Below the pieces are notes generated by a model, which worked only from the letters and a program-made list of their open reading frames with translations, had not been told where the DNA came from and ran no database searches. Of a DNA stretch of 38,793 nt, positions 4,442-36,493 are shown in pieces (within the stretch, counting starts at the first letter, position 1; each line of letters begins with the position of its first letter). The DNA lies in assembly GCA_003990765.1 (NCBI GenBank), contig RBNJ01000155.1, forward strand, positions 1 through 38,793, in the 5' to 3' direction. The DNA comes from Jimgerdemannia flammicorona. Lineage: Eukaryota. A program made the position numbers and the translations under genes.

Positions 4442-4969
4442 TGTAACATAGCGGATGCTTACTCTTGAAAGTATGTCGGATTTCTGTATCTTGAAAACTT
4501 GACCATTCTGACTCTCACAGAGTCTCTTGAAGTTGTAGGGGAGAGTGGGTGAGTTCGAAGTGTATCTGCCTGCAGGCTTACTAGTTCCTTTGCTATCTCT
4601 TTGCTTTGAACTATTTTGATCTGAGGTTTATTAACTCAAAGATACTGGGTTATTTATATAAGTTTGCTAGCTATGAGATGGCTACTGAGTTATGTGGCTA
4701 AGTTATGAGTCATTTAGACAATGTCTAGAAATTTAGACAATGTCGAAATGCTATACTAAATTGGGGTGTTCAATTTGGATAATGTCTAAGAATTTAGACA
4801 ATGTTGAAATGCTATACTAAATCGAGGTATTCAATTTGGATAATGTTTAAGAATTTAGACAATGTCAAAATCGAAGACTGCTAACTATAAGGTTATACTA
4901 CTTTGGGACTGGGTGCGATCAAGTGTCTATTCCCTATTTTCTTCTTCCAAATTTGGCTGTACTGTCACA
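4442..4969 (-). repeat. 3' LTR of gypsy A (528 bp)
   Basis: TGTAACATAG...GTCACA, near-identical to 10749-11280; preceded on the minus strand by the purine tract CAGGAGGAAG. Confidence 0.95.
4713..4870. repeat. 61-bp tandem repeat within the gypsy A LTR (also ~11020-11180)
   Basis: TTTAGACAATGT recurs at 4732, 4793 and 4854 (period 61), with a partial copy at 4713. Confidence 0.85.
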
Positions 4970-5006: not shown

Positions 5007-5444
5007 CTATTCAAACTCCCCGGTTTCAACCGTCTGTATGGTCTTATACTGTGCAATTTGCTGCATGACTGTTTTCCAATGATGTCTTCTTACTTTCTCA
5101 AAGTTGGTGGGGGTTACTCCTCTCAGGTGGTCCATCACTAGTTTATCTTCTCGGAATAACTTGTGGATCCTTTTGGCGATAGTAATCTGTGAGTAGGAGA
5201 GTTGGCACTTGGCAATCCAGTCCTCTTTGGTCTTTGCTGGATCCTGATTGAGCATCTGTCCAAGCTTGAAGTACTCTTGGAATTCTGCTTGGTATTGATA
5301 GGCTCTAAAGTGTGAGATCTGAGAGAGATGAGTCTGCACAATACTCTGAATATCCTCATAGTATGGCTCTATGGTCAGAGGCTCGGTGGTGTGCCATTGT
5401 CTTTCAATGGCTCTTTAGGCAGCACTAGTGATCTTGAGTGCCAT
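5007..5444 (-). pseudogene. Gypsy A accessory ORF3, unknown function (~145 codons, one internal TAA)
   Basis: ATG at 5444 lies just after the integrase stops and is in frame with track ORF 5007..5339. Motifs QEYFKLGQML and IAKRIHKLFR match the gypsy B LTR ORF. Confidence 0.75.
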
Positions 5445-5455
5445 CACAGTACTTT

Positions 5456-6650
5456 TATTACTGGCTATGATATTTCTTGAGTCAGTTTCGGTGAATGGTG
5501 GTCGGGATTATTGTGCCTGAGGGTTTTCATAGCCAAAAGGTGGTCCCTTTTATATTTTGCACAAGGTAAGGTCCTTCCCACTTGAGCTCCAGTTTTCGTG
5601 ACTATGAAACTTCTACCATATTCTGATACACTAGGACTTTGTCTCCTATCTTGATAATCTCCAAGGGCTTGTGGATCTTTTCTGTATTCCTCTGTTATAG
5701 TGTCTGCACCTTGGTTATGTAATCCTCAGCCTTCTTCCTGATTTGGTGTAGTCTCCATATTTCCATGTCCACATATTTCCATATAGCATCTCCATTGGAT
5801 GATAGGGTTCCTTGAGAACATTCTTCTCCAAACAGCATTTCTTGAGAGGTAAAGTGGGTGCTTTGTGATCGGATATCCTGGAGAGCAGATAATGCATTAG
5901 CAGATAGTGATCCCAGTTCTTGTAGTTATCACAGATCTTGGCGATAATATTCTTGAGGGTTTTGTTCATCCTTTCTACTTATCTGTTTCCTTGGGGGTGA
6001 TAGGCTGTGGTCTGAATGTACTAGATCTTGTACTTCTTGTAGAGAACCTCAAAGAGCTGGTTCACAAATTCTGTTCCTCTATCTGTAGTTACTTGTGTTG
6101 GGGTCTTGAACTGGCAGATGATTTCCTTGTGGAAGAAATTGGTGATTGACTGTGCATTGGCTTTCTTGAGAGGTCCTGCTTCTATCCACTTCGTAAAAAG
6201 GTCTACAATGACAATGATGTATCAGTTACCAGTCAGGGTCAAGGGTAGAGGGCTGATTACATCCATTGCTATATGGGCAAATGGTACTGGTTCTATGTGT
6301 GCTGATTCTGGTGCTTGATTCCGTTGGTCTTGTTTCTGTTTCTGGCATTTGTTGCATATCTTGACAAATTGTCTGATATCTTCCTCTATCCCTGGCCACC
6401 ATATTGTTCTTCTTGTCTTGTCATATGTATTTGTTCCTCCTAGATGGCCAAGTTTGTGTACTGATTTCATTGCTTGCTCCTTCTTATGTTCTGGTATGAC
6501 CAGTAGTTTTCCTTTCTTCAGTGTTTCTCCATCAGTTTTGAATTGTTTCTATGTCCTGTTGATAATCATTTGTGTCCATTCTTCCAGATGTTGGGGCATC
6601 TTTCGCTGTCCTAGATATGTGATAATTCTGTAGTAGAGCTCCTTATTTAT
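5456..6650 (-). pseudogene. Gypsy A integrase (HHCC, DDE core, GPF-type C-terminus, no chromodomain)
   Basis: HKLGHLGG...CNKCQ, MDVISPLP, VDLFTKW, NKTLKNI and IHRN.LKKY; several stops and frameshifts. Confidence 0.9.
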
Positions 6651-9600
6651 GATTGATTTGTTGGTTGGAGGCAGTTTGAGGTGTCCATGAGAGAGCATCT
6701 GCATTGGAATTCCATCTTCCAGGGCAGTGTATGATGGTCACATCATAGGCTTGTAATTTCATTATCCATCTGACATAGATTCCCTTAGGTTGTCCAGTTG
6801 TCAGTAGCCAGGTGAGAGCTGAGTGGTCTGTCTGGATAGTGAAGTGTCTTCTGGCCAAATAGTAGTGGAACTTTTCCACAGCCCAGATGACTGCAAGGCA
6901 TTCCAACTTGTAGGACTCGTATTCCTTTTCAGCCCCTCGGGTTCCATGGCTAAGATATGTAATGACATACTCTTTTTTGTCTTCTTTTTGAGCTAGGACT
7001 GCTCCTAGTCCTTGTATGCTTGCATCTGTCTGAAGGATAAATTCTTGGGTCCAATTGGGTCATCTGAGGATGGGTGCCTGAGTTAGTCTGATCTTGAGTT
7101 TGTCAAATGCTTTTTGTTGTCTGCCAGTCTACTGGAACTTGGTATCCTTCTTGTTGAGTTCGTAGATTGGACCTACGATGTTGGAGAATCCTCTAATGAA
7201 TCTGCAATAGTAGGAGGCAAGTCCCATGAAGGCTTGGGCTTCTGTAACAGTAGTGGGCCTTGGGTATGCTGCTACTGCTTGTATTTTGAGGGGGTCCATG
7301 TATGTTCCATCTCGATTGATAATATGACCAAGATAGGAGATCTCAATTTCTGCAAACTTGCACTTCTTGGGTTTGATATAAAGGCCATGTTGTCTTAGTT
7401 TCTCCATTATCTGCTGTATATGCTGCAGATATTCCTCAGGTGTCTTGCTATAGATGATTACATTATTGACATAGACCATCATCCATCTTCCCATATCATA
7501 GTGGAAGATTTTGTTCATCATTTGCTGAAAGCTTGCTGGTGTATTGCACATTCTGAATGGCATTCGTAGGTAGATATAGGTTCCGTCTGAGGTGATGAAG
7601 GCTGACTTTTCACTTGCTATCTCTGTGAGTCCGATTTGGTGAAATCCTGAGTATAAGTCCAAGGTGCTGTAGTACTCTGCTTCGTCTCCCAGTGTTATAA
7701 GGATGTCACTGATGAGCAGCAGTGGTTGGCGATCCTTCTTGGTAACTGCATTGAGCTTTCTGTAGTCGACACAGAGCCTTGGGGCAAATTCTCCAGGTTT
7801 GCTTTCTTTTTTCGGGGCTAGTACAACTGATGAAGACCAGGGGCTGCTGGCTTCTTTGATGATGCCAGCTTCTTCCATCTGCTTGATTTCTTCTCTAAGT
7901 CATTCTCGGTAGGCTGGCGGGACAGGTCTTGCCTTCTGATAAATGGTTCAGTGTCTCTGGTGTCTACCTCATGATAGTAGTATGGGGTCTTTTCCTTGAT
8001 ATCCTTGAAATCTGTGGCAAGGACATCCTCAAATTTGTAGAGTATTTTCTTGAGTTCCTCCTTAAGTGGGAATTCATCTTCAATGGTATAACTGTGCTTG
8101 CTTGTGTTTTCCTCCTTCTTATGCTCAAGTTCAGTGATCTTGGTGCTGGCGAATACTCCTCTTCCTATGGATCCAAATTCTTTCTTTCCTCTTTTTGTTT
8201 CCTCCAGATTCATGACTTCTATGATCCTTGGCTGTATGATTGGGAAGATCAACATCTGTGCCAATCAGTCCTTCTTCTTGACTGGAAATGGAATTGTAGG
8301 ATTGTGGTTCCTAGCAATGAGTAGAATTTCTTCAGTATAGTCTGAATCAATGACTCCTTCTTCAATTGTGATTTCACTTCTAGCCAGACTGCTTCTTGTC
8401 TTGAGAATCCTGACATGATCCCTTGGGATGGTCATCTTTAGTCCAGTTGCAAGTAGTGTGGTTATCTGGGGTTCAAGTACAGTTTCTTCTACTGTAGCGA
8501 TGTCCATTCTGGCTGCATTTTCTGACTTATATTCTGGTAAGACTACATCAGGGTGGATCTTTCGAATCTTGATCTTGATTTCTTCTTCATCATCACTGTC
8601 CTTCAGGAGGACTGGTGGTTCGTTGTCTTCCTTCTTCTCTTCTTCTCTGATCTGTTTTTCGAGAGCTTTCTGCCATCTTTCCTGGTAGATCTTCCTGGTT
8701 TCAATGGTGTACTGGTAGCAATTATTGACATGCTCCATACAGTACATCTTGATTCCATGAGGACAGACTCCTTGTGGAGCATAGCCTTCTGTGATCTTCT
8801 TGCACCATTCTTCTTCACTCATCCATCCAACTTTTTTCTTCTTTGGAATAGTCACCATATAAGCTTCCTTTTGCTCACTCTCTTCTTCCTCCATATCAGG
8901 CAGGACTCCTTTGTTGACATTGATGGGAATTCGTATCTTCTGTCCCCAGTAGGTGATCTGTATCTTCTAAGTATTGAGATCGATTACCGCCTTGGCCTTG
9001 TGAAGCCATTGATTACTGATGAGGATGTCATAGTTGGTGGCATTGGTTACAATTATATCTACTGGGATTATTGCTCCTCCGATCTTGATGGGAACATCTC
9101 GGATCTTTCTCAGAGGTGTGGCTCTTGTGCCATCAGTTGTGACAAATACTAGCTTAGTTGCTTCTTCCACATCCCAACCTAGGCAGTCTACTGCCTTCTT
9201 ACTGAGGAGACATCCTCCTACTCCCATGTCAATGATGGCTTCAAAGGTTCTATCTTCAATTTGGCATGTTGTATAAGCAGAGGTTTTGTGATTGTCCTCA
9301 CTTTCTTCTCCTGAGTCCTCTTGAACATTATTGGCCTCAGTTATCTTCTATCCTTGTTCCTTGGTTGTTTCAGCAAGTCCAAACCTCATTTGCTGTCTGA
9401 ATGTTGGGATTTCTGCGAGCTGACCAAAGGTTGCATTGACCTTTTGTTGACTGAGATCCTTGAAGATATCATACTTGAAGGTCTTGGTCTTGCAAAGCTT
9501 CTTTTCTTTTTCTCCTTTACTGGCTAGAGTGGTTCCTCAGATGATATCTTGAACTGCTTACTCCAGCTCGATATCTTGGTCCATCTCTTTGGCTTGGCTT

Positions 9601-10634
9601 TCTGTAGTGATTTCCATCTACTTTTCCACTGGGTTCTTCTTGGGTCTTCCTGGTGGTCTCTTGTAGAGTTCTTTGTGAGCATCCTTCTTGGTGGTCTGAG
9701 CAGAATAGGCCTCCCATTCCTCTTCATTGGATTCTCCAATTTCTTCAAAGGTGATTATATTGGCCTGCTCCTTGTTTCATATAGCATTGCTTGGTTGAGT
9801 CTTGCATTTGGTTTCACTCATACATTCATAGGAGTAGTGGCCTTCTTCTCTGCAGCTGTAGCAGGTACCTTTCTTCTTGTCTGAGGTGGCGGCAAACTTC
9901 TGAACAGGGTGGCAATCTCTTCCTCAGATTTCCTTTACCACATCTCCCAGGTGAGCAGTTATTTCAGCAAACCTTTTGGCAAGTTCCTCCATAGGGTCAC
10001 TGTTCTTTTGCTGCTCTGTAGCTTTTGGCTGAGGTGTGTTTTGATTGATCATTATGGTGGAGATCACACTGGTTGCCTTGGGTGCCTCGATTCTGACTCC
10101 TGTAACTCTCTCCATTGTATGATCTTATGGGTGTCTGGCTATCCAGTATTGCTGAGCATAGGTGACCTTCTGTGGCAGATCCAGAATCACTGGTGATGAG
10201 CAGATGGCCATGGCTATTTCTGGATGGACTCCTTTTATGAAGGTTGCTTCAGCTACTTGATCTTGGATAGCAGTAGCATAATCTGCAAGGATTATCTGAT
10301 ATCGGATTCTGATATAGCATGTGTTTGGATCCTCGCTCATTCCTTGGCATATTGTGTTGAGCTGATCCTTCAGGGCTTGCTTGATCTCGTCTGTGTAATA
10401 TGTATTTCAGAGCCAGGTCTTCTGTGCTGTCAGTATGGCATTGGCATCATTTCCTGCATGGGTTGCAGCTGTGAATGCTGCTCTGGCAGGGCCTCGTAGA
10501 CTGAAGGGCATGAGGGCTACTTGCTGTACTGCTGTTAGAGTCCTTACAGCAGCATACTGCTCGAAATCGTCAATGAAGGTGATGATTGATTCATCTGAGG
10601 TATATCCATGGAATACTGGTGGTCTCATATCCAT
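6643..10634 (-). pseudogene. Gypsy A gag-protease-dUTPase-RT-RNase H polyprotein, disrupted
   Basis: Gag MRPPVFHG; knuckle CYSCREEGHYSYEC (~9820-9870); protease IIDMGVGG; dUTPase RSSLA, GVIDSDY and RGKKEFGSIG; RT LCVDYRKLN and LDLYSGFHQI; RH ECLAVIWAV, TDHSAL and NADALS. Confidence 0.92.
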
Positions 10635-10748: not shown

Positions 10749-11280
10749 TGTAACATAGTGGACACTTACTCTTAAAAGTACATTGGATTTCTGTATCTTG
10801 GAAACTTGACTGTTCTGACTCTTGCAGAGTCTCTTGAAGTTGTAGGGGAGGGTGGGTGAGTTCGAAGTGTATCTGCCCACAGGCTTACTAGTTCCTTTGC
10901 TACATATCTCTTTGCTTTGAACTATTTCAATCTGAGGTTTATTTACTCGAAGATACTGGGATATTTATACAAGTTTGCTAGCTATGAGATGGCTACTGAG
11001 TTACATGGCTAAGTCATGAGTCATTTAGACAATGTCTAGAAATTTAGACAATGTCGAAATGCTATACTAAATCGGGGTGTTCGATTTGGATAATGTCTAA
11101 GAATTTAGACAATGTCGAAATACTATACTAAATTGGGGTGTTCAATTTGGATAATGTCTAAGAATTTAGACAATGTTGAAATTGAAGACTGCTAACTATA
11201 AGGTTATACTACTTTGGGACTGGGTGTGATCAAGTGTCTATTCTCTATTTCCTTCTTCCAAATTTGGCTGTACCGTCACA
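10749..11280 (-). repeat. 5' LTR of gypsy A (532 bp)
   Basis: Direct repeat of 4442-4969, differing mostly by transitions; adjacent to the PBS. Confidence 0.95.
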
Positions 11281-13185: not shown

Positions 13186-14723
13186 TGTAATGGTGACCCC
13201 AGAATGATGACATCAGTATAGGAGATAGTCTTTCCTTATAAGCCACCAGATCAGAGCATAAGAAGATCATACAGTATATGAAATGAGCAATAATGGCCAA
13301 CTGTGAGTCATTGTGACCACAGTACAAGCATCCTGAAGAATATAAAAGAAGGATCAAGGAACTATAGTAGCAGCAACCAACAAGAACCACCAATCCCAAA
13401 ATAGCTCAAAGACTTACTACAAATGAAATGCCTGCTGCCTGCTAAACCTCAAGGTCAAGGAATCACCAAGGTATCTCAGTTGAGGAAAGGATGTTCCAAG
13501 ACATCAGAAGAGCCATGAGGACCCACTCAATAAGGACTCTGAGTATCAACCTGGATACTACAGATCCCTATCACTTTATCCTCTACTATTGTGAAATGGA
13601 AACAAGAATCACCATTACCACTGAATGCCTCCAAATGTGGCAGGAGTACAAAATAGGAAACCTCCTCTGCCAGGAGTTCCCACAGGCTAGCACTCAAGAG
13701 CTATAAGATGCCACTCCCATGGATATATATGAAATGAGGATAGCTAAGAAGATCTATCAGATCTTCAGACATGCATCATGGTTGATCCCCAACTTAGAGT
13801 ATGTTAGAGTCTCAGACTTCAGAGACCTGTCATCCCACCATATCAATGCACTAGAAGCCAGGGTAGCTACAGAAGCCCAGTCCACTATCACCCTCAATAG
13901 TGAAGAAGTAGAAGACTTCTGGCATCCCATCCTTCAGGACAACCCAGACCAATTCCTGCAAGGATTGATCTCAGTATTCCAAGACCCAAGCATCCAGGTT
14001 AGACCTCCCTAAGACCCCACATTTGTTTCTTATTTTGTGAAAAAGAACCTTATAAACTGGAGAGCTCCAGATCCCCTTATTCCCACTGCTGCTGAATGTG
14101 ATGATATCATTGGTGATGACGTCATCCTGTATGACATCAACATATGTGAAGCATGTGAATCATGTGATGATGAATTCACAGATCTCATCTCCTTCAGTGA
14201 TGATAATGATGATGAAGCCCCCATGATCCTGAACTTTCTACTCTAAGTTCTTTGTTACACTAAATAATGTCAGCATCAGTATTCTCATATAACACTGGAT
14301 AATGCCAGCACCGGCATTCTGAGGTGATACAAAATTGTTCCAATACTGGTATTCTGATATGACACTGAATTATATCAGTATCCTGAACCTGTACAACTAT
14401 TAGTGCCGACCCTGGAACTCAGTAGTTTTAGTTATTGGAATTTATATTTAGCTTTATATCTTAGCAACTGTTGAATTATATTTTGTATAGATACCTCTCT
14501 TATTTCCTCTGAAATAAAGTCAGTCAAGTTCAGTGCAATACATAATCCCTTGCAAGCAATCTAAGAGATAACAAGATAGTTAAAGATAAGAAGTTTGAGA
14601 ACTATAAGACCTTGGAAAGGTACTCCAATAAGAACTTGCTTATAACAAACTTGAGTTAGTCTAAGAGATATATCTTGAAGAGAATCTGATATATTTGAAG
14701 GACTCAGTGACTACTATGTGACA
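13186..14723 (+). repeat. 5' LTR of gypsy B (1538 bp), containing a 5'-truncated copy of ORF3
   Basis: Direct repeat of 20418-21958; track ORFs 13491..13706, 13719..14012 and 14037..14246 are all in one frame. Confidence 0.95.
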
Positions 14724-14726
14724 ACT

Positions 14727-14744
14727 TGGTACCCATTGACTGGT
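14727..14744 (+). promoter_or_regulatory. Primer-binding site of gypsy B
   Basis: TGGTACCCATTGACTGGT, 3 nt after the LTR; one transition away from the gypsy A PBS. Confidence 0.75.
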
Positions 14745-14843
14745 AATTCAAGATGAATCCCTTACTTTTAAGCTAAAAAACGAACAACCCCCACAACAAC
14801 TACCCTGACTACAAGAATCACCCCTGCAAGAATTCAAGATAAG

Positions 14844-17800
14844 ATGAAAATGCACCCCCCCACATTTTATGGATATATATACTACCGAAGAGTCAATCCT
14901 GACCTTCATTGAAGACTTTGAACAATTTGCCACCATACAAGCCCTTGGTGTAGATACTCAATTGGCCCTTCTACCAGTCAGCCTCAGAGGACCTGCCAGA
15001 GACAAGTTCAATGCAGCCACCATTGCTGATGCTGGTGCAGCCAAACTTGCCAACATGGAGGTCTTTCTCAGAACAATATATTATACCAAAGAGATCAAGC
15101 AAGCTCTCAAGGATCAACTCAATACCATCTGCCAGGGACTTAGTGAAGATTCCAACTCATTCTATAATCGAATCTGCCACCAGATTGTCTTGGCTGGCTA
15201 TGATGACCACCTCAAGGAACAAATAGCAGATTCAACCTTCCTCAAAGGAGTTCACCCTGAAATTGCCCTAGCAATCCAGTCTACCCCAGCTGTACTGACC
15301 CTTGATCAGAAAGTGGTCTTTATACAGAGATATTAGACTATCAGACATCCTGCTGAACACTTAATGGAGAAAATAACTGACATCAAGATGGAGCCATCAA
15401 AGCCAACTAGTATCTTACCTGCTACAGTTGTAAACAGACAACCAACCTCACCTACCCCCAAGACAACCAAAGCTGACCCAGTGGAGGAACTCGCCAAGCA
15501 GTTCACTAAGATGACTACACACCTTGGAGATGTTGTTAGAGAAGTCTGAAGTGCCAACAGGAGACCAGTGCAGAGATTTGCAGCTGCTACAGAAGAATGC
15601 AATATCACATGCTTCAGATATAGAGAAGAAGGCCACTATACAAAGAATTGCATGACTGAAACAAGACGCAAAGCCCAACTAAGTAATACTAGCAGAACCA
15701 GAGAACAAACCAATGCAGTAGTCATCGAGGAGATTGGTGACACTGATGATGAAGAATACTATAAGGAGCTTGAATTCTATCCTGCTACTGAAGGTACCAG
15801 AACCTGGTCCAAGCTCTATGACAAGAAGAGCAATAGCAAGCCAGTTGGAAGACCAAAAAAGACCCCAGCTGTCACTATTCAAAGCAAGATCCAACTCAAG
15901 GAGATTGATCAAGACATAGAGTTAGATGAAGCTATCTGCCAAATTATTGAAGGCACTACTCTAGTCTCAGGAGAAAGTGAAAGCAAGAAGGAACAGAAGC
16001 TGCGCAAGACCAAGATCCACCAGTATGATATCTACAAGGACCTCAAGGAACAGAAGGTCAATGCTACTTTTGGACAACTAGCTGAAGTCCCTGTCTTCAG
16101 ACAGCAGTTGAGAGTAGGACTTGCAACTACTGTCAAGAATCAAGAGTACAAGATTGTAGAAGCTCACAATGTACAGGAAGAATCTGAGAACTCAGGTGAA
16201 GAATCTGAAGACCAGCACAAGACATCAGCCTATACCCTATGTCAGATCGAAGACTGTATCTTTGATGTCATCATTGATACTGGTGCTGGGGGATGCCTCA
16301 TGAGCAAGAAGACAATTGACTGCCTAGGTTGGGATATTGAAGAGTCCACCAAGATGGTCTATGTCACAGCAGATGGTATACAAGCTACCCCCCTTGGCAA
16401 AATCCGAGAAGTCCCCATCAAGATAGGAGGAGCTACCATTCCAGTAAACATGATTGTTACAAGCACCACCAACTATGACATCCTTATTGGCAACCAATGG
16501 CTTTATAAGGCCAAGGCCATCATTGACCTCAATGCCCAGAAGATGCAGATCAACTATAAAGGAAGAAAGGTACAGGTCTCTATCAATGTCCACAAAGGAG
16601 TTCTACCAGACATGGAGGAAGGAGATGAAGAAGACACAGAGGTCTTCATGCACTCAGTGAACAAGAACAAGAACAAGACACCCAAGCTCACAGATGAGCA
16701 GTGGTATAACAAGATCATCAATGGCTATGCCTCTCAAGGAAGATGCCTCCATGGTACTAGGATGTACTGCTCTGAATACCTGAATGACTGCTGGTCCTGT
16801 ATCAGTGAAGTCAGGAAAATCCACCAACAGAAACATGAGTAAGAAGCCACTGAAGCAAAAAGGAAAGCCGAAGAAGATGACCAGCCCCCAGAGCTCCAAG
16901 CTGACAGTGATGATGAGTAGGAATAAGAATCAGACATCACCCTCAAGGTCAAGAAGTTTCACCCTGAAGCCAAGATCCCAGAATATAAGACTAAAGGAGC
17001 CATAGGAATGGACCTTGCCAGTATTCAAGATGCTACCCTTGAACCACAGACCACCACCCTACTTGGCACTGGAATTGGAGTCAAGCTGCCAGAGAACCAT
17101 GCTGGAATTATCAAGACAAGGAGCAGTCTGGCCAAAAGTGAAATCTCAGTTGAAGGAGGAGTAATTGACCCAGATTACACTGGCAAGATCTTCCTCATAG
17201 TCAGAAATCACAACCACACCACCCCCTTCGAAGTCAAGAAGCATGACAGGATTGGCCAGATGCTGATCTATGAAATTAAGAAACTCAAGATCATTGAAGC
17301 CATTGAACTCATCAAGACCAAGAGAGGAGAACAAGGCTTTGAATCTACTGGAAGAGGAGCCTATGCCACCACCAAGATTACCAAACTTGAACACAAGAAA
17401 GAAAAGGACCAGAATAAGCACACATATACCATTGGAGAAACCTTTCCCCTGGAGGAACAACTTCTCAAGATTCTGCACCAGAATGAAGGAGTACTTGCTA
17501 TAGACTTCAGGAATATCCACAATCAAGAACCCAAGTACTACCATGAAGTTGACACTGGAGTTACCAAGCCCATCTATCAGAAAGCCAGACCCATACCACC
17601 TGCCTACAGAGAATGGCTGTGAGCAGAACTCAAGGAAATGGAAGAAGCCAGAATCATCAAGCAAGCTATCAGCCCCTGGGTCTCACCCATTGTCCTTGCT
17701 CTAAAGAAAGAAAGCAAACCTGGAGAGTTCATGCCAAGACTCTATATTGATTACAGGAAGCTCAATGCTATCACCAAGAAGGATAGACAGCTCTTGCCAA

Positions 17801-18864
17801 ATATTCAAGAGATCCTTACCACCCTTGGAAGTAAAGCCAAATACTACACCACCTTAGATCTGTTCTCAGGCTTCCATCAGATTGGTCTCACACAAGATAC
17901 CAGTGAGAAATCAGCCTTCATCACACCTGATGCCACCTATATCTACCTGTGAATACCATTTGGAATGTGCAATGCCCCAGCAAGCTTCCAGCAAATGATA
18001 AACAGAGTCTTCAGTAATGAGATTGGAAAATGGCTCTTTGTCTATGTTGATGATGTGATCATCTTCAGCAACACTGCACAGGAACATATCAATCACATAC
18101 AGCTAGCCCTCAAGAAGCTCAAAGAGCATGACCTCTACATCAAGCCCAAGAAATACAAGTTTGCGGCTCAAGAAATTGCCTACCTAGGACACCTCATCAA
18201 CCAGACTGGAATCTACACAGACCCCATGAAGATTGAGGCTGTTGCAGCCTACCTGAGACCCAGAACAACTACAGAAGTCCATGCCTTCCTTGGACTGGCC
18301 AGCTACTACAGAAGATTTATCAAAGGATATTCCAATATTGCAGCACCTATCTACGAGCTACTGAAGAAGGAGACCAAATTCGAATAGACCAAGGAGCACC
18401 AAGAAACCTTCAATGAACTCAAGACTAGGTTGACCCAAGCACCTATCCTCAGAAGACCAGACTGGAACCTAGAATTCATCCTGCAGACAGATGTGAGTAC
18501 TAGAGCAGTCCTAGCTCAGAAGAAAGATGGACATGAATATGTCATCTCCTATATAAGCCAAGGTACCCATGGAGCAGAACAGAACTATGAGTCATGCAAG
18601 CTTGAATGCTTAGCAGTAGTCTGGGCAGTAGACAAGTTCCACTACTACCTAGCTGGGAAACATTTCATTATTCAAACAGACCACTCTGCTCTTGCCTGGC
18701 TATTCCACACCCTGAACTCCAAAGAAATATATACCAGATGGATCTACAGGCTGCAAGAGTATGACTGTACTGTCAAGCATTGCTCAGGAAAGACCAACAC
18801 CAATGCCGATATACTCTCAAGAACACTCTGAAACACCCCCATCAAGACCATTCAACATAAATAA
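14844..18864 (+). pseudogene. Gypsy B gag-protease-dUTPase-RT-RNase H polyprotein (single frame, interrupted by point stops)
   Basis: Track ORFs 14869, 15364, 15568, 17008, 17638, 17965 and 18430 share one frame. Motifs: CFRYREEGHYTKNC, IIDTGAGG, dUTPase motifs, VYVDDVIIFS, KLECLAVVWAV, TDHSAL, NADILSR. Confidence 0.93.
16945..17360 (+). pseudogene. dUTPase domain within gypsy B pol (homolog at ~8160-8570 minus in gypsy A)
   Basis: All five trimeric dUTPase motifs in order: GMDLAS, RSSLA, GGVIDPDYTG, DRIGQML, RGEQGFESTG. Confidence 0.92.
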
Positions 18865-20104
18865 GGAGCTCTACTATGGATTAATCAGCTACCTTAGGCA
18901 GTGGAAGATGCCCAACCACCTCGAACCTTGGACAATCACTATTATCAACCAGACTTGGAAACAGTTTGAACTAGACAATACTATACTCAGAAAAGGAGGA
19001 AAGCTAGTAATACCTGAACACAAGAAGTATTAAGTAATGAAGGAAGTACACAAGCAAGGACACTTAGGAGGAACTAACATATATGACAAGGCAAGAAGAA
19101 CCATGTGGTGGCCCAAGATGGAAGAAGACCTGTGCCAATTTGTCAAAGGGTGTGATAAGTGCCAAAAACAGAAACAAGATCAGCAAGACCAGGCACCTGA
19201 GTCATCAAGAATTGAGCCTATCCCTTTCTACCACATTGCAATGAATATCATTGGACTGCTACCAGTAATACTATCAGGAAACTGCTATATTATAGTTATT
19301 GTAGACCTCTTCACCAAATGGATAGAGGCAGGAGTATTACAAGAAGCCAATGTCCTCTCTATAGCTGACTTCCTGCACTGAGAAATCATCTGCTGCTATA
19401 AGACACCAAAGCAAATCACAACAGACTATGGAACAGAATTTGTCAATGAATTCCACGAGATAATATATCAGAAATACAAGATCCAGTACATCAAGACCAC
19501 AGTATACCACCCTTAAGGAAATGGACAGACAGAGAGAACCAACAAGACCCTCAAGAACATCCTAGCGAAGATCTCAGAGATATATGAGAATTGGGATAAC
19601 TATCTCCCAACTGCCCTCTCTGTCCTATGAGATATATGGTCACAGAGCACACACTTTACCCCAAGAGAGCTGCTCTTCAGAGAAGAAGATTCTGATGGAA
19701 CCTCAGCCACAAATCTAGATCTAACTTGGAGATAGGTTGATGCAGAAATCTGGAGACTACACCAAATCAGGAAGAAGGCTGAAGATTATATCACCAAGTC
19801 ACAAGCACTGACAAGGAAGAATGCAGAAAAGAATCACAAGGCCCTAGAACCCATCCAAATCAGAGAAAAGGTTCTACTGTATCGAAATATAGTAGAAGCC
19901 TCATGGTTATGAAAACTGGAACCCAAATGGGAAGGACTCTTCTACATGCAAGATATCAAGAGAACCACCTTTTGGCTTAGAAAAATCTCAGGGACTATAC
20001 TGCCTACTACAGTACATAGGAACAGACTCAAGAAGTACCATGAACCTATATAAGAGAAGCAAAATGTAATGACTACCTGTGAGGTTCTAGTCTGTGAATC
20101 ATAA
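18857..20104 (+). pseudogene. Gypsy B integrase, +1 frame relative to RT-RH
   Basis: HKQGHLGG...CDKCQ, VDLFTKW, TDYGTEF, YHP*GNGQTERTNKTL, KLEPKWEGLF, VHRNRLKKY; apparent end at TAA 20102-20104. Confidence 0.9.
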
Positions 20105-20108
20105 CAGC

Positions 20109-21481
20109 ATGTCCTGTGACCAGCAGGCTATCTGTCTGGACCATTCTCTAAGGGATACAGCACTGATAACTACTCATCTATGAGACTTTCAAAGTCAGAG
20201 AAGTTTGAACCATCAACTGATTGGTCAAGATCAGAATCAGGCCCTTGCTCTATATGAAGGGAGTGATCCTTCACCATCATACCAAAATACAAAGGGAAGA
20301 TGCCAGCCCATAAATACCACTTTTCGACCCCTTGCCAGAGGTTATGGGATCAGCAAATTTTTCAGGACTAGACCAATGAATAAGGATGCTCAGGAAGATC
20401 CTTATTCAGGAGGAAGATGTAACAGTGACCCCAGAATGATAACATCAGCACAGGAGACAGCCTTTCCTTACAAGCCATCAGATCAGAGTATAACAAGATC
20501 ATACAGCATATGTATGAAATGAGTAATGATGACCAACTGTGAGTCATTGTGACCACAGTACAAGCATCCTGAAGAATATAAAAGAAGGATCAAGAAACTG
20601 CAGTAGTAGTAACCAACAAGAACCACTAATTCCAAAATAGCTCAAAGACTTACTACAAACGAAATGCCTGCTGCCCACCAAACCTCAAGGTCAAGGAATC
20701 ACCAAGGTATCTCAGTTGAGAAAGGATGTTCTAAGACATCAGAAGAGCCATGAGGACCTGCTCAACAAGGACTTCGAGTGTTAACCTGGGTACTGCAGAT
20801 CTCTATCACTTTATCCTCTACCGCTGTAAAATGGAAACAAGGATCACTATTGCCACTGAATGTCTCCAAATGTGGCAGGAGTATGAAATAGGAAACCTCC
20901 TCTACTGGGAGTTCCCACAGGCCAGCACTTAAGAGCTACAAGATGCCACTCCTATAAATATATGTGAAACAAGGACAGCTAAGAAGATCTATCAGATCTT
21001 CAGGCATGCACCATGATCGATTCTCAACTTGGAGTATGTTAGAGTCTCAGACTTCAGAGATCTGTTATCCTGCCATATCAATGCACTAGAAGCTAGGGTG
21101 GCTACAGAAGCCCAGTCCACTATCACCCTCAACAATGAAGAAGTAGAAAACTTCTGGCATCCCATCCTTCAGAACAACCCAGACCAATTCCTGCAAGGAT
21201 TGATCTCAGTATTCCAAGACTCAAGCATCCAGGTTAGACCTCCCCAAGACCCCACATTTGTTCCTTATTTTGTGAAAGAGAACCTCATAGACTGGAGAGC
21301 TCCAGATCTCCTTATTCCCACTGCCGCTGAACGTGATGATATCATCGGTGATGATGTCTTCTCATGTGATATCGACATATACAAAGCACATGAATTGTGT
21401 GATGACAAATTCACAGATCTTATCTCCTTCAGTGATGATGATGATGATGAAGCCTCTATGATCCTGAACTTTCTGCTCTAA
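20109..21481 (+). pseudogene. Gypsy B accessory ORF3 spanning the PPT and U3 of the 3' LTR (~457 codons reconstructed)
   Basis: ATG 4 nt after the integrase stop. Track ORF 20205..20522 crosses the PPT/LTR junction in this frame. It continues into 20750..20932 and 21029..21481 after a 1-nt deletion that the 5' LTR lacks. Internal stops fit C->T or G->A changes. Confidence 0.7.
20407..20417 (+). promoter_or_regulatory. Polypurine tract of gypsy B
   Basis: CAGGAGGAAGA directly before TGTAAC of the 3' LTR. Confidence 0.85.
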
Positions 21482-21958
21482 GTTCTATATTATACTGAAT
21501 AATGCCAGCACTGGTATTCTCATGTAATACTGGATAATGCTAGCACCAGCATTCTGAGGTGATGCGAAATTGTTCCAACACTAGTATTCTGATGTTATAC
21601 TGAATTATACCAGTATCCTGAACCTGTATAACCATCAGTGCCGACCCTGGAACTCAGTAGTTTTAGTTATTGAAATTTATATTTAGCTTTATATCTTAGC
21701 AACTATTGAATTATATTTTGTATAAATACCCCTCTTATTTCCTCTGAAATAAAGTCAGTCAAGTTCAGTACAATATACAATCCCTTGCAAGCAATCTAAG
21801 AGATAACAAGACAGTTAAAGATAAGAAGTTTGAGGACTATAAGATCTTGGGAAGGCACTCCAATAAGAACTTACTTATAACAAACTTGAGTTAGTCTAAG
21901 AGATATACCTTGAAGAGAATCTGGCATATTTGAAGGACTTAGCAACCACTATATGACA
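20418..21958 (+). repeat. 3' LTR of gypsy B (1541 bp)
   Basis: TGTAACAGTG...ATGACA; ~35-bp degenerate tandem repeats (~21490-21620), TATAAATA (~21721) and AATAAA (~21748) lie downstream of the ORF3 stop. Confidence 0.95.
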
Positions 21959-24879: not shown

Positions 24880-24922
24880 ATTATTATTTTTATTTATTTT
24901 ATTTTATTTTATTTTATTTTTT
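24880..24922. repeat. (TTTTA)n microsatellite
   Basis: Direct inspection. Confidence 0.85.
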
Positions 24923-25508
24923 GGTAAGTAGGATGGGGACAGTATGGTCGAATATTACACAACGTGTATGTGGTTGCATTACGGGGATGGCGCCCAAAAA
25001 ATTTGATTCCCACAACCGTGCGCCAGGGGGTCAAAACTGGTATTGATAAGCTGGCGTCTTCCATATACATTTCAGTGTCGTTGGTAACGGGGCACTCTAA
25101 AGCACGCCGACCAGCGCCTAAGGGCGGGCACGGCTTTGTGGTCGGTCCGGGCGCTTAACAAATTCGGACCGGGAAAAGCCTGGCCTTCGGGCCTCCTTCT
25201 TTCGCTTCCTGAGATATATATGTTTTTCGCAGTTTTGCGGTAGCGTATATACAACATAGTGAGTTCTTTTTAATAAAGTTAAAAGGAGCCAAGTACCCAG
25301 GGTCACGTGTGTCGTTGTATGCCACGTTCTCGAGCTCTATACCCTTGCACCTTACATCGTCTGCACGGAATGGAAGCCCTTTGAAACCCCCTCCTACCTT
25401 CCTTCCACCAGAACCACACAACGCCACCGCCACATTTGACACCTCCACCCCCCCCCATGGAACCATAGCAGGACCGCCCCGCCGACGAATCCGATTTGAA
25501 ACGCCACT

Positions 25509-26231
25509 ATGCCGACTGCCACCGGCTTGACTATCATTATAGCGAACCTGCGAGACATTGTCAAGGACCTGCAGAGGAGGATCGTGACGATGGAGGCCCT
25601 GGCGGACGGTCATGGGATGGACGCGCGACTGTTGTGGACCCTGGAGGTGAGCTCGATTGCATTGGTTAGAGGGAAAGGTTTATGTGTTTGAGTGGGCATA
25701 CGTTGCAAAATCTCCCTCTCATTTCGTATCAGTTATATTGCACTTGCTCACTCATGATCGTTACCGCCATACTTTTCCCTCCTTCCCAGGAATACAACCT
25801 GAACACCAACGCCCAATTTACCGCACCATCAAACGTACCATTTTCGACCTCTGGAACACGCCGCGAGCTCTCACTTCCCACCTGGAAGTGTGCCACGCTA
25901 ATCAACATGAGGGCAGCAGCGATGCCGACTTTCGGTCCACTTCTTTTTCGACATGCTTAGCTTCGAAGACACTATTCCGACATCAGCAACTCGATTATTG
26001 ACCGGATCTCCGCTGTCAGCTAGACAGGTATCCAAATTTCTCTCGCTATCCTCTTCCAGTCGCTCTGCAGCGCCCGGGGGTCTCGATCGCGAGCTTTCGG
26101 GACACATAATCCCCCGATTCCAGGGCCACATTGGAGGCCGGGTCGCCGAAGACTTGTATATCGACCTGTTTACCCCATCGGGGACGCACTTCCTGACCGA
26201 TACCATGCCGGAGGGTGATGCCTTTGCATAG
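25509..26231 (+). CDS. Hypothetical spliced gene or pseudogene (possible exons 25509-25646, 25790-25834, 25917-26231; ~165 aa)
   Basis: Strong donor GAG|GTGAGC at 25647 and pyrimidine-rich acceptor CCTTCCCAG at 25789. The second intron has a weak donor (GTACCA) but a GCTAAT branch site and CAG acceptor. Exon phases join in frame; CpG is retained. Confidence 0.35.
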
Positions 26232-26922
26232 GAAGGGAGTAAGGATGTTCCTGGGGGGGGGGGGGGGGATGTAAAGCAAATGGCAAGGTTAGGGGTCCAG
26301 GGCAGGGGTGGAGGATGAGCGGAGGGAGGATGAAATGGGCGTGATTTGGGAAAAGAAGAGAAGACGAGACGGTGTGGCAAGGGCGCACAGAGATGGGTAA
26401 CTAGGACGGAGGTCGTTGGAAAGCCGAACGGAGGCGGCGGGTATCGGGGTTAGGAGGTGTTTAGGCATTCGAAATCGGGCTATGACGTGGTTAATGGTGA
26501 GTATTATTTACGGGTTTATTGATACTATGCCGAGAGATTGGAAGGAAATATTCAAGAGTGCAGCGGGGTTGGCGTTGTCCATTTATTCCTTGAGTCTGAT
26601 GGGTTGATTTCTGAAATGTCATCATTTCGCTCACATTTTCTCTCATCTTTTGATCCCACCCCTCTCCAAATACTATCACAATCGCAAAGAATACAAGGAC
26701 GTCGGGGATTGATTGTGAGGACTATTTTTTTTTTTCTCCTTTTTTTTTTTTTTGTTGTATTTGTGGTCCTTTCACACTGGCGATTAACCTCCTGCCACTC
26801 CATTCGATTCAAAACTTCCTTAACCAACCCATCGCCCCTCCTCAACTATCCACCCCAGGGCGTAACCTCCTCCTGCGTGGGAGACACCCAACGTTCTTCA
26901 ACACGCTAGCTCATAGCGCTAC

Positions 26923-27348
26923 ATGGAAGAGAAGAGCATTGACCAGCTCGGTCATCACGAAGTCAATTACTCAGCGCGGTCGACGTGTACCGGGCCATCT
27001 TCGCCGCGGGACTAATCGGAGAAGGACGAAGGTGAGGTCGAGTTTGTGGATCCGTTCGCGTCGGAGGAACGGCAAGTACTTTGAGACGGACCAGGACTCG
27101 CAACGCTACTGGCAGGTCTGAGATCGTCATGCGTCGGGCTGACCGGTTTGTCACTCTATCACACCATGGATCTTTATGACAAGATGTTCAAGGAAGAAGC
27201 AGAGGGCGAGCAGAGACTGTATGATGTCAACTCTCGTGATCGTGGACTGACCTTGCTTAAGCTCCGCACTTTTCTGGTACAACTACATCATGAGAATTTT
27301 TGGAACTCTCACCTGTATCTGAGATATCTAGGAACATCTGATATCTAG
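26923..27348 (+). pseudogene. Fragmentary coding-like sequence of unknown identity
   Basis: GC-balanced, protein-like segments in different frames (VDVYRAIFAAGLIGEG; GKYFETDQDSQRYW; MDLYDKMFKEEAEG), grading into AT-rich DNA. Confidence 0.25.
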
Positions 27349-27779: not shown

Positions 27780-28133
27780 TAGTACTCCCAAATGAATTAA
27801 ATCAATTCAAATCAAATCAAATTGGGGATCATTTGAATTAAATTGAATTGGGGATTTTTCAAGTTTCAATTGAATTAAGAGTCCAATTTGAACACTATTT
27901 TTAGAAATATAATAATTCAATGAAATTATATCCAAATTTAATAATCTTTAGCTTATTAGATTCCTCTTATATGGAGGAATCTAACAGGCTAAAGATTATT
28001 GAATTTAGATGTATTTTCATTGAGTTATTATATTTCAAAAAATAGAGTTTGAATTAAATCTAGACCTTTGATTTAATTAAATCAAATTAAATTTAGATCA
28101 AATTTGATTCAATTCAATTCTTTGAGAGTACTA
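27780..28133. mobile_element. Foldback MITE 1, hAT-type (decayed)
   Basis: Ends TAGTACTC...GAGTACTA; perfect 8-bp TSD AGTAAAGT (27772-27779 and 28134-28141); palindromic about ~27970. Confidence 0.85.
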
Positions 28134-29013
28134 AGTAAAGTATATTCAATTTTGAATTTTTTAAGTTTCTTAAATTTATTAAGGAGTTTTTTTAATTATA
28201 TAGTAATTTAGTTATTAAAGAGTATTTTTTTTATTTAATAATATTAAAATAATAACTACATTATTAAAAAACAAAAATTAATTTTAAAGATCTATTATAA
28301 TATATTATCTTTTTAAAGTTAGATTATATATTTTCATAAATATATCTAATATATATATCTGATAATTTTTTGAAAGTAAACTTTTATTATTATTTATTTT
28401 ATTCTATATAATTAACTCTTTTATTAATAACTTATTTATTTAAAAATAATTATTATTAGTATTTTAATTATCTCTATTACTTTTAGAATTACTATTATTC
28501 TCAAATAGTTATTTCAAATAAAGAAATAAGATCTATAATTATTTATATATATAGAAATTATAATTATTAGCTTATTATATAAATTTTTTAGTAGTTAACT
28601 ATATAAAGTTTCTAATAGTAATTTATTAATTTTATTAATACTATAAATTTATATTATAAATTATAAACTTAGAAACTTTCAATATATATTATAAAATTAG
28701 CTTATAGTTAAAAGATCTTTAGATAATATAAATATTTTAAATATATTTAGATATAATTTATGGATATATAAGTAAAGAATAAATTATTAAATGAAATGTT
28801 TTATTTATAGATTAATATTAATAATTAAAGTATTTTAAAATATCTTATTTAAATAAATTTAATTAATAGGGAGATTTTAATATTATTAATAGTATTAATA
28901 TAAAATCTTTTTTATAATAATAAGTAAACTTTAGTAATTATTAGAAATTTTAATAGATCTTATATATATAATATATTTTATTATTTATTAAAATAGTAAC
29001 TCAATATAAATAT

Positions 29014-29367
29014 TGTAACGTAGTGGACGCGGAATTTAGTAAGTTGGATGGATTTTGGAATTGGACTGGTTTGATCTGACTCGTTCTGACTGAGGTTTAT
29101 TCACTTTAAAATACTGAGTTATTTATACAGATTTGTGCGCTAATTCTGCTACTAAATATGTGGCTAAGTATTAAGTCTTTTCATGTGAAATTCTCAGGTA
29201 GAATCTCATGTGAAATCCTATCTGAAATTCGTGAAAGTAACAAGAGTTTCACTGATAATGTTTTAGATGCAGTGTCTGCAGTAAAAGACTATACTAAATT
29301 GGAAATTGGATTCAGGTACTACGATCAAATGTCTATTTCCTGTTTCTATTTCATACTATACGTCACA
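29014..29367 (-). mobile_element. Solo LTR related to the gypsy A LTR (354 bp, CpG retained)
   Basis: TGTAACGTAGTGGAC...CGTCACA with TSD ATAT on both sides; shares blocks GAGGTTTATT, ATGTGGCTAAGT, CTATACTAAATTGG and GATCAA.TGTCTATT with the A LTR. Confidence 0.88.
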
Positions 29368-29486
29368 ATATATAACTTTATTTCACATATCATTTTATCA
29401 CTTTTACATATATATTATATATTAAATATATAATTTATATATTTTGAATAAATTACTTCTTCTGTTTATTACAATAAAGTTATAAG

Positions 29487-29868
29487 TAGTATTCTCAAAA
29501 AATCAAATAAAAGGTCCAATTTAATTTAATTTGAATCGGATCAAAGATTAATTTAATTTAAAATTTAATTCAAACTCTATTTTTTAAAATATTATCTTGA
29601 CAAATATATATCCAAATTTAATAATCTTTGGCTTGATAGATTATCCTATATAGAATGAATCTAATAAGCTAAATATCATTGAATATAGATATATTTTCAT
29701 TGAGTTATTATATTTCTAAAATTAGATTTGAATTATTAGACTCTTAATTCAATTTAAACTTAATTTGATTCAAATTTTATTTGAATTGAAAAATCCCCAA
29801 TTTGATTTTATTTGAATGATCCTCAATTTGATATAATTTGAATTGATTCAATTTATTTGAGAGCACTA
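29487..29868. mobile_element. Foldback MITE 2, same family as MITE 1, opposite orientation
   Basis: Ends TAGTATTC...GAGCACTA; degenerate 8-bp TSD GTTATAAG/GTAATGAG; internal similarity to the reverse complement of 27780-28133. Confidence 0.8.
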
Positions 29869-30062: not shown

Positions 30063-32752
30063 TATTAGAGGTGAAGTTTTCTCTAGTAATAGAGATAACT
30101 ATAAATATTAGAATAGCAACTCAATATACCAGTATGTGATCTTATGCCATTCTATCAGATTTATATTATTTATCAGTAAAGTATAAAATATATGACCTAT
30201 ACAACTTTAATAAAAATGCTCCTCTCTTTATAATAAAGATTATGAGCCCTACTAGTGGTAAGTAGTTATAGTAAAACACTTCTTTAAAATACACTATACT
30301 AGGAATGTCTAACAATCAGCCTAGCAATGTGAGCATAGAAATAGATATGCCAATTACAAGTATTCCACTAACCACAGGTGTAACCTCAATAAGTAGTGCT
30401 CCTAACGAGTCAATTTAATCCGGATTGGATTCGGATTGATTCGGATTGAATCCCATCCGGATCAACTCAGATGGGATTCGAATCCCATCCGGATGGATTC
30501 GAATCGGACTCGAATCGGATTCGAATCAACCATTGTTTTGATTTCCAAATTAGACAATTAAATGTTTACATCAATAACTTGATGAATAATCATCCAAATT
30601 TGATGATCTTGGTGTCATTTGAAAGCCCGTAATAAGGCCTATCTAATGATACCAAGAACATTGAAATCGGATCACGCGTTGCTGAGTTATGAAGGAAAAC
30701 ATTGAATCGCCGATTTTGGAAATTCTTTGATTTGCCGATTTTGGAAATTTCGTCAAATGGAACGTTTTCCTTAATATCTCGGCAACATGTAATCTGATTT
30801 TAATGTTCTTGGTATCATTAGAAAGGCCTTATTAAGGGCTTTCAAATGACACCAAGATCATCAAATTTGGATGATTATTCATCAAGTTATTGATGTAAAC
30901 ATTTAATTGTCTAATTTGGAAATCAAAACAATGGTTGATTCGAATCCGATTCGAATCCGATTCGAATCCATCTGGATGGGATTCGAATCCCATCCAAATC
31001 CATCCGAATCCCATCCGGATTGACTCGTTCCGAGCACTATCAATAAGTATAGGAAATATAGTTCTGATTATTAGTGTAAATATAGCCAAAAGGTCTATCC
31101 TGATCTTTAATAAGAGAGACTATATTATTTAGATATTTCATATTACAAATCTTCTTAATGAATACAGCTTAGTGGAGTATATAAAACCATAAGTGCTAAT
31201 TAAAATTGTAATTTTACAAATAATTATCAAGTATTATGTAAGATCACATTTATGTTATTGAACTTATAAATGAAGCTTATAATGTATACTATGACAGCTC
31301 ACAATATATGAGAGATTACATTTACTTATCATATATAAGCATCTATATCCAATTGTTTCTACTTGAAATTTCAATTATTCAATATATGAATGAAGTCCAA
31401 GGAGTGTATCTACAATTATGTTAGTTGTATCAATAATTTGGTAAATTGAGTGAATTCTCTCAGTATATCTGCAGATTACATTAAGAATAAAGACAAAATT
31501 ATAGTACTCATAAGAGGACTTCTGGATGTGCATAATGTTATCATTACAACTATGCATGAGAACAGCAGTCTCTTGGATTATGCTCATATGATAACAAGCC
31601 TCATGAATGAGAAAATACATCAAAGAAATAGTGCCAACAATAATGAAAACACCTTCTATAGGTCCTGCAGACATGGTGCTAAATAAGGAAATTACAGACA
31701 ATATGGCCAAAGGAGATAAACCCAAACCCAAGCTCAATAATACAACAACTAGTCTACTAATTAATAAACCAAGTATGATGGCTACTGTGAATACTGTGGT
31801 AAGTATAAATATAGGAAATACTATTATTATAGCTGGCAAAATGACAAGGAGAGCAGTGAAAATAAACAATAATGTAGAAAAAGCCAATATTGGCAATATG
31901 AGAACAGCAGAAAGAACTATAGAAGAAAGTGTAGTAATACAAACACTGCTGAAACTAATGAAAGCAGTAATCTATTTTTTGTGCAAGCCACTAGCTCTAC
32001 TGTCAATTCTGCTAGCATGAGATCTATATCTATAACAAGTAGTTCCACTAGTACAAGATCTACTATATCTATGAAACCTGGTCAGAAGGATGATAATTTT
32101 AGACCAAAAAGTTCTACTAATTTTACCAGTTGCTAGTGTAAGATCTACTGCCAAATTCACTAACCCATCATCTATGAATCTAAGTTAGCAAAATACTTTT
32201 GAGTCAATGAAAAGTAATAATGATGAATATACCACTAATATAGCTAATGACAATAATATCTAGCTAATAGAATCTGGAGTTATATAATATATAATACTAT
32301 ATAGAGAATAGTTCTCTATATATGAGCCTTTTGAATACCCTATACCTATCAAGTTAGGAGATAATAATATCATCTATACTCAAGAAAAGGGAAATATAGA
32401 GATATATCTCTATAGAAATATTATTGAGTCTACTATCAATCTTGAGAACATACTATATACTTCAGAGATAGAAAAGAACCTCTTCTCTATAGGCAAAATG
32501 ATAGCTCATGGTAATAAAGAAATATACATATATGTGAAGAGTATCACTATATATGATTTGTATAATAATATGATAGCTTTAAAATATAGAAATCTTTATA
32601 TAATCAATGAGATACCAAATAGTATAAAAGTCTCTACTTATGCAATAACTATATCTGATACATCCAACATATGACATCAATACTTAGGACATATCAGCAA
32701 GACAAGTCTTGAATATATATATAATAAGAAGTGGCTTAATGAAAGGATTGCC
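30063..32752 (+). mobile_element. Decayed Ty1/copia element (5' LTR, PBS, gag, protease, GAG-pre-integrase), cut off by a LINE
   Basis: PBS GATTATGAGCCC (30238-30249); gag from ~30305 homologous to copia-1; protease WLIESG...WFSTYE (~32260-32330); NLFSIGKM; WHQ.LGHISK (~32670-32700); MKGLP. LTR start is approximate. Confidence 0.8.
30394..31039. mobile_element. Young foldback MITE 3, hAT-type (646 bp), inserted in copia gag
   Basis: TIR TAGTGCTC...GAGCACTA; perfect 8-bp TSD TCAATAAG (30386-30393 and 31040-31047); ~300-bp inverted arms with GGATTCG-like subterminal repeats; CpGs intact. Confidence 0.93.
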
Positions 32753-34343: not shown

Positions 34344-34432
34344 AAAATACCACCTTTCTCTGGTAACTTTCAGATTACACAACCCTTTGGCAACACTTTT
34401 GATGCAGTTTCTGGAGAAAAGCTACTAGTATC

Positions 34433-36463: not shown

Positions 36464-36493
36464 GGATTGATCGAGAACAAACCATATTTCATT

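Follow-up and report, generated by a model that had tools for sequence, protein, structure and literature searches.

The window analysed here, a 38,793-nucleotide stretch of the Jimgerdemannia flammicorona genome (contig RBNJ01000155.1), contains two full-length gypsy-type LTR retrotransposons, elements A and B, both of which are decayed, dead copies. Element B occupies the forward strand between a 5' LTR (TG...CA) at 13186..14723 and a 3' LTR at 20418..21958, which are 90% identical to each other, and a 4-bp target duplication (GTAG) lies outside the element in the flanks read by eye. Its ORF1 (14844..18864, start tentative) encodes Gag, protease, dUTPase, RT and RNase H in a single frame with decay stops. 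The following ORF2 (18857..20104, 415 codons, decayed in this copy) is a stand-alone integrase with an HHCC zinc finger and a DDE core. Element A lies on the reverse strand between a 5' LTR (TG...CA) at 10749..11280 and a 3' LTR at 4442..4969, delimited by LTR comparison (92.6% identity), with a 4-bp target duplication ATAT. It comprises a decayed ORF1 of the same Gag-protease-dUTPase-RT-RNase H composition (6643..10634, start tentative), an ORF2 for a stand-alone integrase (5458..6650, decayed here, 397 codons in an open copy) and an ORF3 of 153 codons (5007..5468). Six-frame reading and Pfam matches give the same domain order in both elements, namely protease, dUTPase, RT, RNase H, a stop and then the integrase in the +1 frame, with RT_RNaseH upstream of the junction and Integrase_H2C2 downstream. 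A primer-binding-like sequence starts three bases past the 5' LTR and is the same in both elements (14724-14745 in B; 10748-10727, reverse strand, in A), as is the purine-rich tract just before the 3' LTR. The LTRs themselves differ threefold in length (1538 nt in B, about 530 nt in A), and both copies of the long LTR of B hold a 154-codon frame devoid of any Pfam family (21017-21481; 13700-14100).

The integrase start overlaps the ORF1 stop by 8 nt in both elements (18856..18864 in B, with TAA at 18862-18864; 6643..6651 on the reverse strand in A, with TAA at 6645-6643), and the start codon reads ATA in the window copies. The 21-nt sequence CATAAATAAGGAGCTCTACTA is found at 18856-18876 (forward) and 6651-6631 (reverse). 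As the preliminary description had reported, the RNase H frame ends H-K-stop and the integrase frame reads INKELYY in +1 in both elements. Its statement that Gag to RNase H form one frame holds for B, decay stops apart, and fails for the window copy of A, which carries a private frame change near 7950. The identity of the 21 nt, also reported there, is real in the window copies and partly accidental: typical copies match at 20 of 21 positions, with CTA in place of the CTC of window B in the other 29 of the 30 B-type copies compared.

Two origins had been put forward for this junction, either a start codon lying on the stop, with integrase as its own ORF and ATG turned into ATA by G>A decay, or a programmed +1 shift at AAA-TAA. 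Searches of the window genome returned 112 loci, which, after removal of two with the junction at their edge, collapsed to 103 distinct copies; they come from the top scores among thousands of candidates, so that the sample leans to well-kept copies and copies with junction indels are under-sampled. The alignment of the junction over these copies, by which the preliminary description proposed to distinguish ATG from ATA, gives cATGAATAA, the start overlapping the stop by 8 nt, in 98 of 103, and ATA in five, two of them being the window copies (A-type: 29/32 ATG and 3/32 ATA; B-type: 69/71 ATG and 2/71 ATA). The TAA stop of ORF1 is intact in 103/103 copies, and none of the 100 copies in which the distance from the junction to RNase H could be measured shows a change in it. 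Decay is driven by CpG loss (22-28% per site); changes at TG/CA contribute less (5-7%), and the loss at the start column (3/32 in A, 2/71 in B) is close to that of other TG sites (5.8% and 5.3%). Since the start column fits the background TG>TA rate, the ATA of the window is attributed to decay, which bears out the first of the two origins. The TG>TA rates of the two window copies are 4/44 and 4/41, and the presence of ATA in both is a coincidence of a rare kind, roughly one case in a hundred. In these two related families, integrase is thus encoded separately, by an ORF2 that has an ATG of its own at the ORF1 stop or next to it.

This arrangement is old. Open natural copies of the A and B integrases are 74% identical, with a pN of 0.16 and a pS of 0.77, and the last 430 Pol codons give a pN of 0.24 and a pS of 0.71. 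On these values the two types are near synonymous saturation, and the split dates back far and was under selection. Synonymous conservation between A and B is highest over integrase codons 1-10, at 0.81, the 25 other segments ranging from 0.23 to 0.74; an RNA element at the 5' end of the integrase was not accepted on this peak, which rests on 8 codons only.

The open B integrase used as a query retrieved 86 near-length proteins of 228 to 727 aa, none of which contains an RNase H domain, and the identity to longer, fused proteins did not exceed 34% (25 matches). Across 46 aligned homologs (39-48% identity), the catalytic residues D130/D190/E226 and the zinc ligands are invariant or almost so, and a Met stands at the junction column in 46/46, followed by N or D in 45/46; 44 of the 46 begin at this column, a position at which gene callers report M whatever the start codon. 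In 11 proteins whose gene call extends further upstream, a true internal Met occupies that column. A quick IQ-TREE run with 63 stand-alone and 37 fused integrases placed 56 of the former, A and B included, in one clade with an SH-aLRT of 100 and no fused member, the stand-alone status of most rows coming from gene calls and not from DNA. Seven further stand-alone integrases are nearby and adjoin plant elements. Fusion of RNase H to integrase in intact relatives, which the preliminary description had named as the sign that both copies inherited a dead ancestral indel, was searched for among the close integrase relatives and was not found. No close relative was found in the viral and prokaryote collections, and a search of the window genome for other split families (query P0021) returned solely A- and B-type copies among the 30 loci read.

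The junction can be followed at the DNA level in metagenomic relatives. Of 92 metagenome and viral loci, 44 have RNase H upstream of integrase, in the same frame in 33 and in a different frame in 11; among the latter, L088, L089 and L090 are true splits, seven others stand at 33% identity or less, and L103 was rejected, looking like ordinary decay. L088 and L089 belong to the 56-member clade. L088 has open ORFs with no CpG loss and a 1564-aa ORF1 extending from Gag to RNase H; its junction is ATGA, a 4-nt overlap, with integrase in the -1 frame. In L089 the RNase H tail is longer (22 aa, vs 13 aa in A, B and L088) and the junction reads TGA-TC-ATG, integrase again being in the -1 frame. In all four clade junctions seen as DNA, two of them from the sister types A and B, the start is no more than 8 nt from the stop. 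In the more distant L090, the RNase H stop and the integrase start are separated by a 278-nt spacer. This spacer (L090:1075-1355) contains a roughly 70-nt tandem duplication and A-runs, has no Rfam match and gives a fold z of -1.1. The N-terminus of L089 gave no match in the window genome, which does not of itself show its absence there.

The RT-RNase H of L088 was compared with 120 relatives among the matches listed. All 14 dUTPase-bearing relatives (50-58% identity) are without integrase and terminate 10-30 aa past RNase H. Against this, integrase is present in 5 of the 44 listed relatives at 47.5% identity or more, none of these five having a dUTPase, and in 74 of the 76 below that value. 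A second group of Gag-Pol proteins, devoid of dUTPase, continues after RNase H with 200-400 aa that are not integrase (P0270, P0275-P0277, P0289, P0293, P0296, P0299 and others), and a third group stops 2-5 aa past RNase H; these groups without dUTPase are perhaps other split layouts. Taken together, the copies, the homologs and the metagenomic junctions make it nearly certain that integrase as a separate ORF is a real, selected and clade-wide architecture.

The third ORF is less regular. In A-type elements it shares 11 nt with the end of the integrase ORF and starts with ATG in 24 of the 27 copies read (ATA in window element A), while the third ORF of L088 overlaps integrase by 29 nt. In B-type copies the ORF following integrase stops at codon 25 in 43/43, with no long ORF in that frame, and L089 has no ATG nearby. 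ORF3 has no Pfam family, and an Atlas search gave unnamed or unrelated leads only. Its starts in A (5468, reverse strand) and L088 (5960) coincide in position, inside the His codon of the KKYH motif at the integrase C-terminus; the two proteins show no evident likeness by eye. A 28-nt tandem repeat array lies downstream of ORF3 in L088 (L088:6810-6949).

Elements A and B are of Ty3/Gypsy (Metaviridae) type by their LTRs, target duplications, domain order and integrase. Both have two TG...CA LTRs and 4-bp target duplications, in line with the definition in the available excerpts of PMC12440569 (TG...CA LTRs, target duplication of 4-6 bp), the order Gag-PR-RT-RH-IN and a gypsy-type HHCC/DDE integrase, whose profile finds the Ty3-G Gag-Pol as best solved-structure match (E 3.5e-54). 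They depart from the general rule given in the same excerpts, under which there are one or two proteins and IN is a part of Pol, in that the break falls between RH and IN instead of gag and pol; with integrase outside Pol, they are classified here as a variant and not as canonical Ty3/Gypsy. In the integrase tree, whose deep support is weak, the clade neighbours plant elements and is separate from the rows that bear a chromodomain, and unlike in chromoviruses no chromodomain was found in P0001, P0040 or the 86 near-length homologs. A dUTPase between protease and RT is likewise described for PosPlaTy3-5 of Postia in the excerpts of PMC2864245, a likeness by description; the dUTPase-bearing fungal Gypsy elements treated there (Postia, Phanerochaete, Tuber) have gag and pol either in a single ORF or as two ORFs, with no separate integrase described. 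In the literature searched, including the available parts of PMC7947760, PMC10508981, PMC2774666, PMC9963178 and 10.64898/2026.05.21.726589, integrase was not found as an ORF of its own in any LTR element; a prior annotation is possible in Repbase, GyDB, Dfam or subscription journals, which lie outside that scope. Lokiretroviruses, considered as a precedent with a split integrase, were ruled out by the corresponding part of PMC7947760.

With regard to its expression, ORF2 is probably made by coupled termination-reinitiation, a reading that rests on junction geometry. The full-length RNA would serve as template, some of the ribosomes finishing ORF1 would remain on it and restart at the adjacent AUG, and free integrase would be produced at a lower level than Gag and RT; protease cleavage at its N-terminus would not be needed, and it would enter the particle untied to Gag. 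Coupling is favoured because start and stop remain adjacent in the four clade junctions despite different tails and frames. The overlap of the A-type ORF3 with its upstream stop adds to this; the other elements do not show that pattern consistently, the third ORF of L088 overlapping by 29 nt, L089 lacking an ATG nearby and B lacking a long ORF in that frame.

Restart after long ORFs is described, in the available excerpts of PMC5972666 and PMC10275272, for caliciviruses, influenza B (TURBS), the non-LTR element SART1 and, among fungal precedents, the victorivirus HvV190S and the hypovirus CHV1; these same excerpts report it neither for an LTR retrotransposon nor for an integrase. As in these systems, the start lies on the stop of a long ORF or a few nt from it and out of frame (AUGA in L088), and all four clade junctions fall within the interval of about 20 nt of TURBS. 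In contrast to TURBS, the A, B, L088 and L089 junctions carry no motif 1 complementary to 18S helix 26, and no significant structure is predicted upstream or downstream of them. Neither UGGGA nor a match to the host 18S helix-26 loop, which we take to resemble that of yeast, occurs upstream in the four elements; a scan for 18S complementarity yielded scattered 7-mers only, none common to A and B at a TURBS-like position. The 80-nt flanks contain no significant minimum free energy fold (z -1.87 to +1.77, in a model without pseudoknots), the hairpins at about +30 in L088 (z -1.87) and L089 (z -1.23) being in different registers. No cis element is thus identified. Rfam searches of six loci gave one sub-threshold antisense match, which was dismissed.

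An A occupies position -3 in 5/5 starts, vs a background of 30-40%, which supports initiation and not a particular route to it: a strong -3 context is not required for TURBS-type restart according to the excerpts of PMC10275272. It fits a separate mRNA equally well, and the main alternative, which we consider rather unlikely, is that integrase is translated from its own sub-genomic RNA, transcribed from an internal pol promoter or spliced from a leader to an acceptor near the junction, the overlap then reflecting compactness. Sub-genomic RNAs are used for retroviral env and for foamy virus pol. The lack of any reinitiation element and the 278-nt spacer of L090 agree with such an RNA, as does a CAG at conserved Ala-Asp codons in A, L088 and L089; this CAG is however missing in B, and in L088 and L089 an ATG in another frame comes immediately after it. 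The four elements A, B, L088 and L089 have neither an acceptor nor a branch point in common, and none of them has a TATA-like match; in A and B a branch-point consensus is missing within 150 nt. A sub-genomic RNA also leaves unexplained why start and stop stay adjacent while the tail changes in length.

The same adjacency is unexplained if ribosomes reach the integrase AUG independently of ORF1 termination, by internal entry or by shunting, a route that we consider improbable. In its favour, the 36-nt stretch preceding the AUG in A and B is A/C-rich (7-11% G) and free of structure; against it, the linker of L088 is G-rich and neither a structure nor a shared motif was found.

A programmed frameshift near the ORF1 stop, yielding an RNase H-integrase fusion, draws on the integrase frame being open upstream of the ATG for 29 codons in A, 47 in B, 11 in L088 and 41 in L089, and is in our view highly improbable. 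The linker peptides encoded there are not conserved, and the junction Met is conserved in all 46 homologs. Restart is favoured over a shift because the frame varies, +1 in A and B and -1 in L088 and L089, while the Met stays, so that the direction needed would differ among relatives. Neither a slippery XXXYYYZ heptamer nor a listed +1 motif occurs in the four elements. The proposed AAA-TAA shift site, restricted to the five decayed copies, is itself a product of decay, given the ATG of the 98 others and the match of ATA to background TG>TA, and the second origin put forward for the junction is therefore abandoned. Integrase is not mentioned in the available excerpts of the frameshifting review PMC5009743.

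That the split is a dead ancestral indel in non-autonomous copies borrowing integrase from elsewhere is largely refuted and scarcely credible: every genomic copy seen is decayed to some degree, yet purifying selection acted on both sides of the junction after A and B separated, the DDE triad and zinc ligands are invariant, L088 with its open ORFs has the split, and the clade has no fused member.

Integrase is normally loaded into the particles of retroviruses and LTR retrotransposons within a Gag-linked or Pol polyprotein, and a clade keeping it as a free gene must solve both its translation and its packaging differently. We see about an even chance that these elements constitute a widespread, undescribed clade of dUTPase-bearing gypsy elements, in which a TURBS-independent stop-restart would deliver integrase after an ORF of 1,300-1,600 codons, the switch in stoichiometry would move from gag/pol to RNase H/integrase, free integrase would be packaged without fusion to Gag, and some members would chain a third gene likewise. 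Should restart be confirmed, the clade would supply many naturally occurring eukaryotic stop-restart junctions for which no cis element is known, and the rules of reinitiation after long ORFs would become testable. It would also account for the annotation of such integrases as 'transposase' and the scoring of the elements as frameshifted pseudogenes.

Several other features were observed in the window. A GC-rich, strongly G-skewed, non-LTR retrotransposon-like element extends over 33000-38793 on the forward strand and runs off the end; its ORF1-like block is duplicated (33264-33563 vs 34856-35155, 78%), its long open frames at 34403-36304 and 36785-37957 have no Pfam matches, and the RT motifs QGDPLSP and AFADD were read by eye near the window end. 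An inverted repeat at 30455-31009, with 249-nt arms that are 92% complementary and 57 nt apart, is composed of short GGATTCGAATC-like units and resembles a MITE or foldback element. Within 27780-29868, nested inverted and direct repeats (27888-28045/29575-29732; 27780-27862/29786-29868) surround a very AT-rich core, and a 64-nt piece at 29079 resembles the LTR of element A. A GC-rich island (52%) at 24900-27200 carries several frames of 80-180 aa on both strands, without a Pfam family, and is possibly a host gene in exons.
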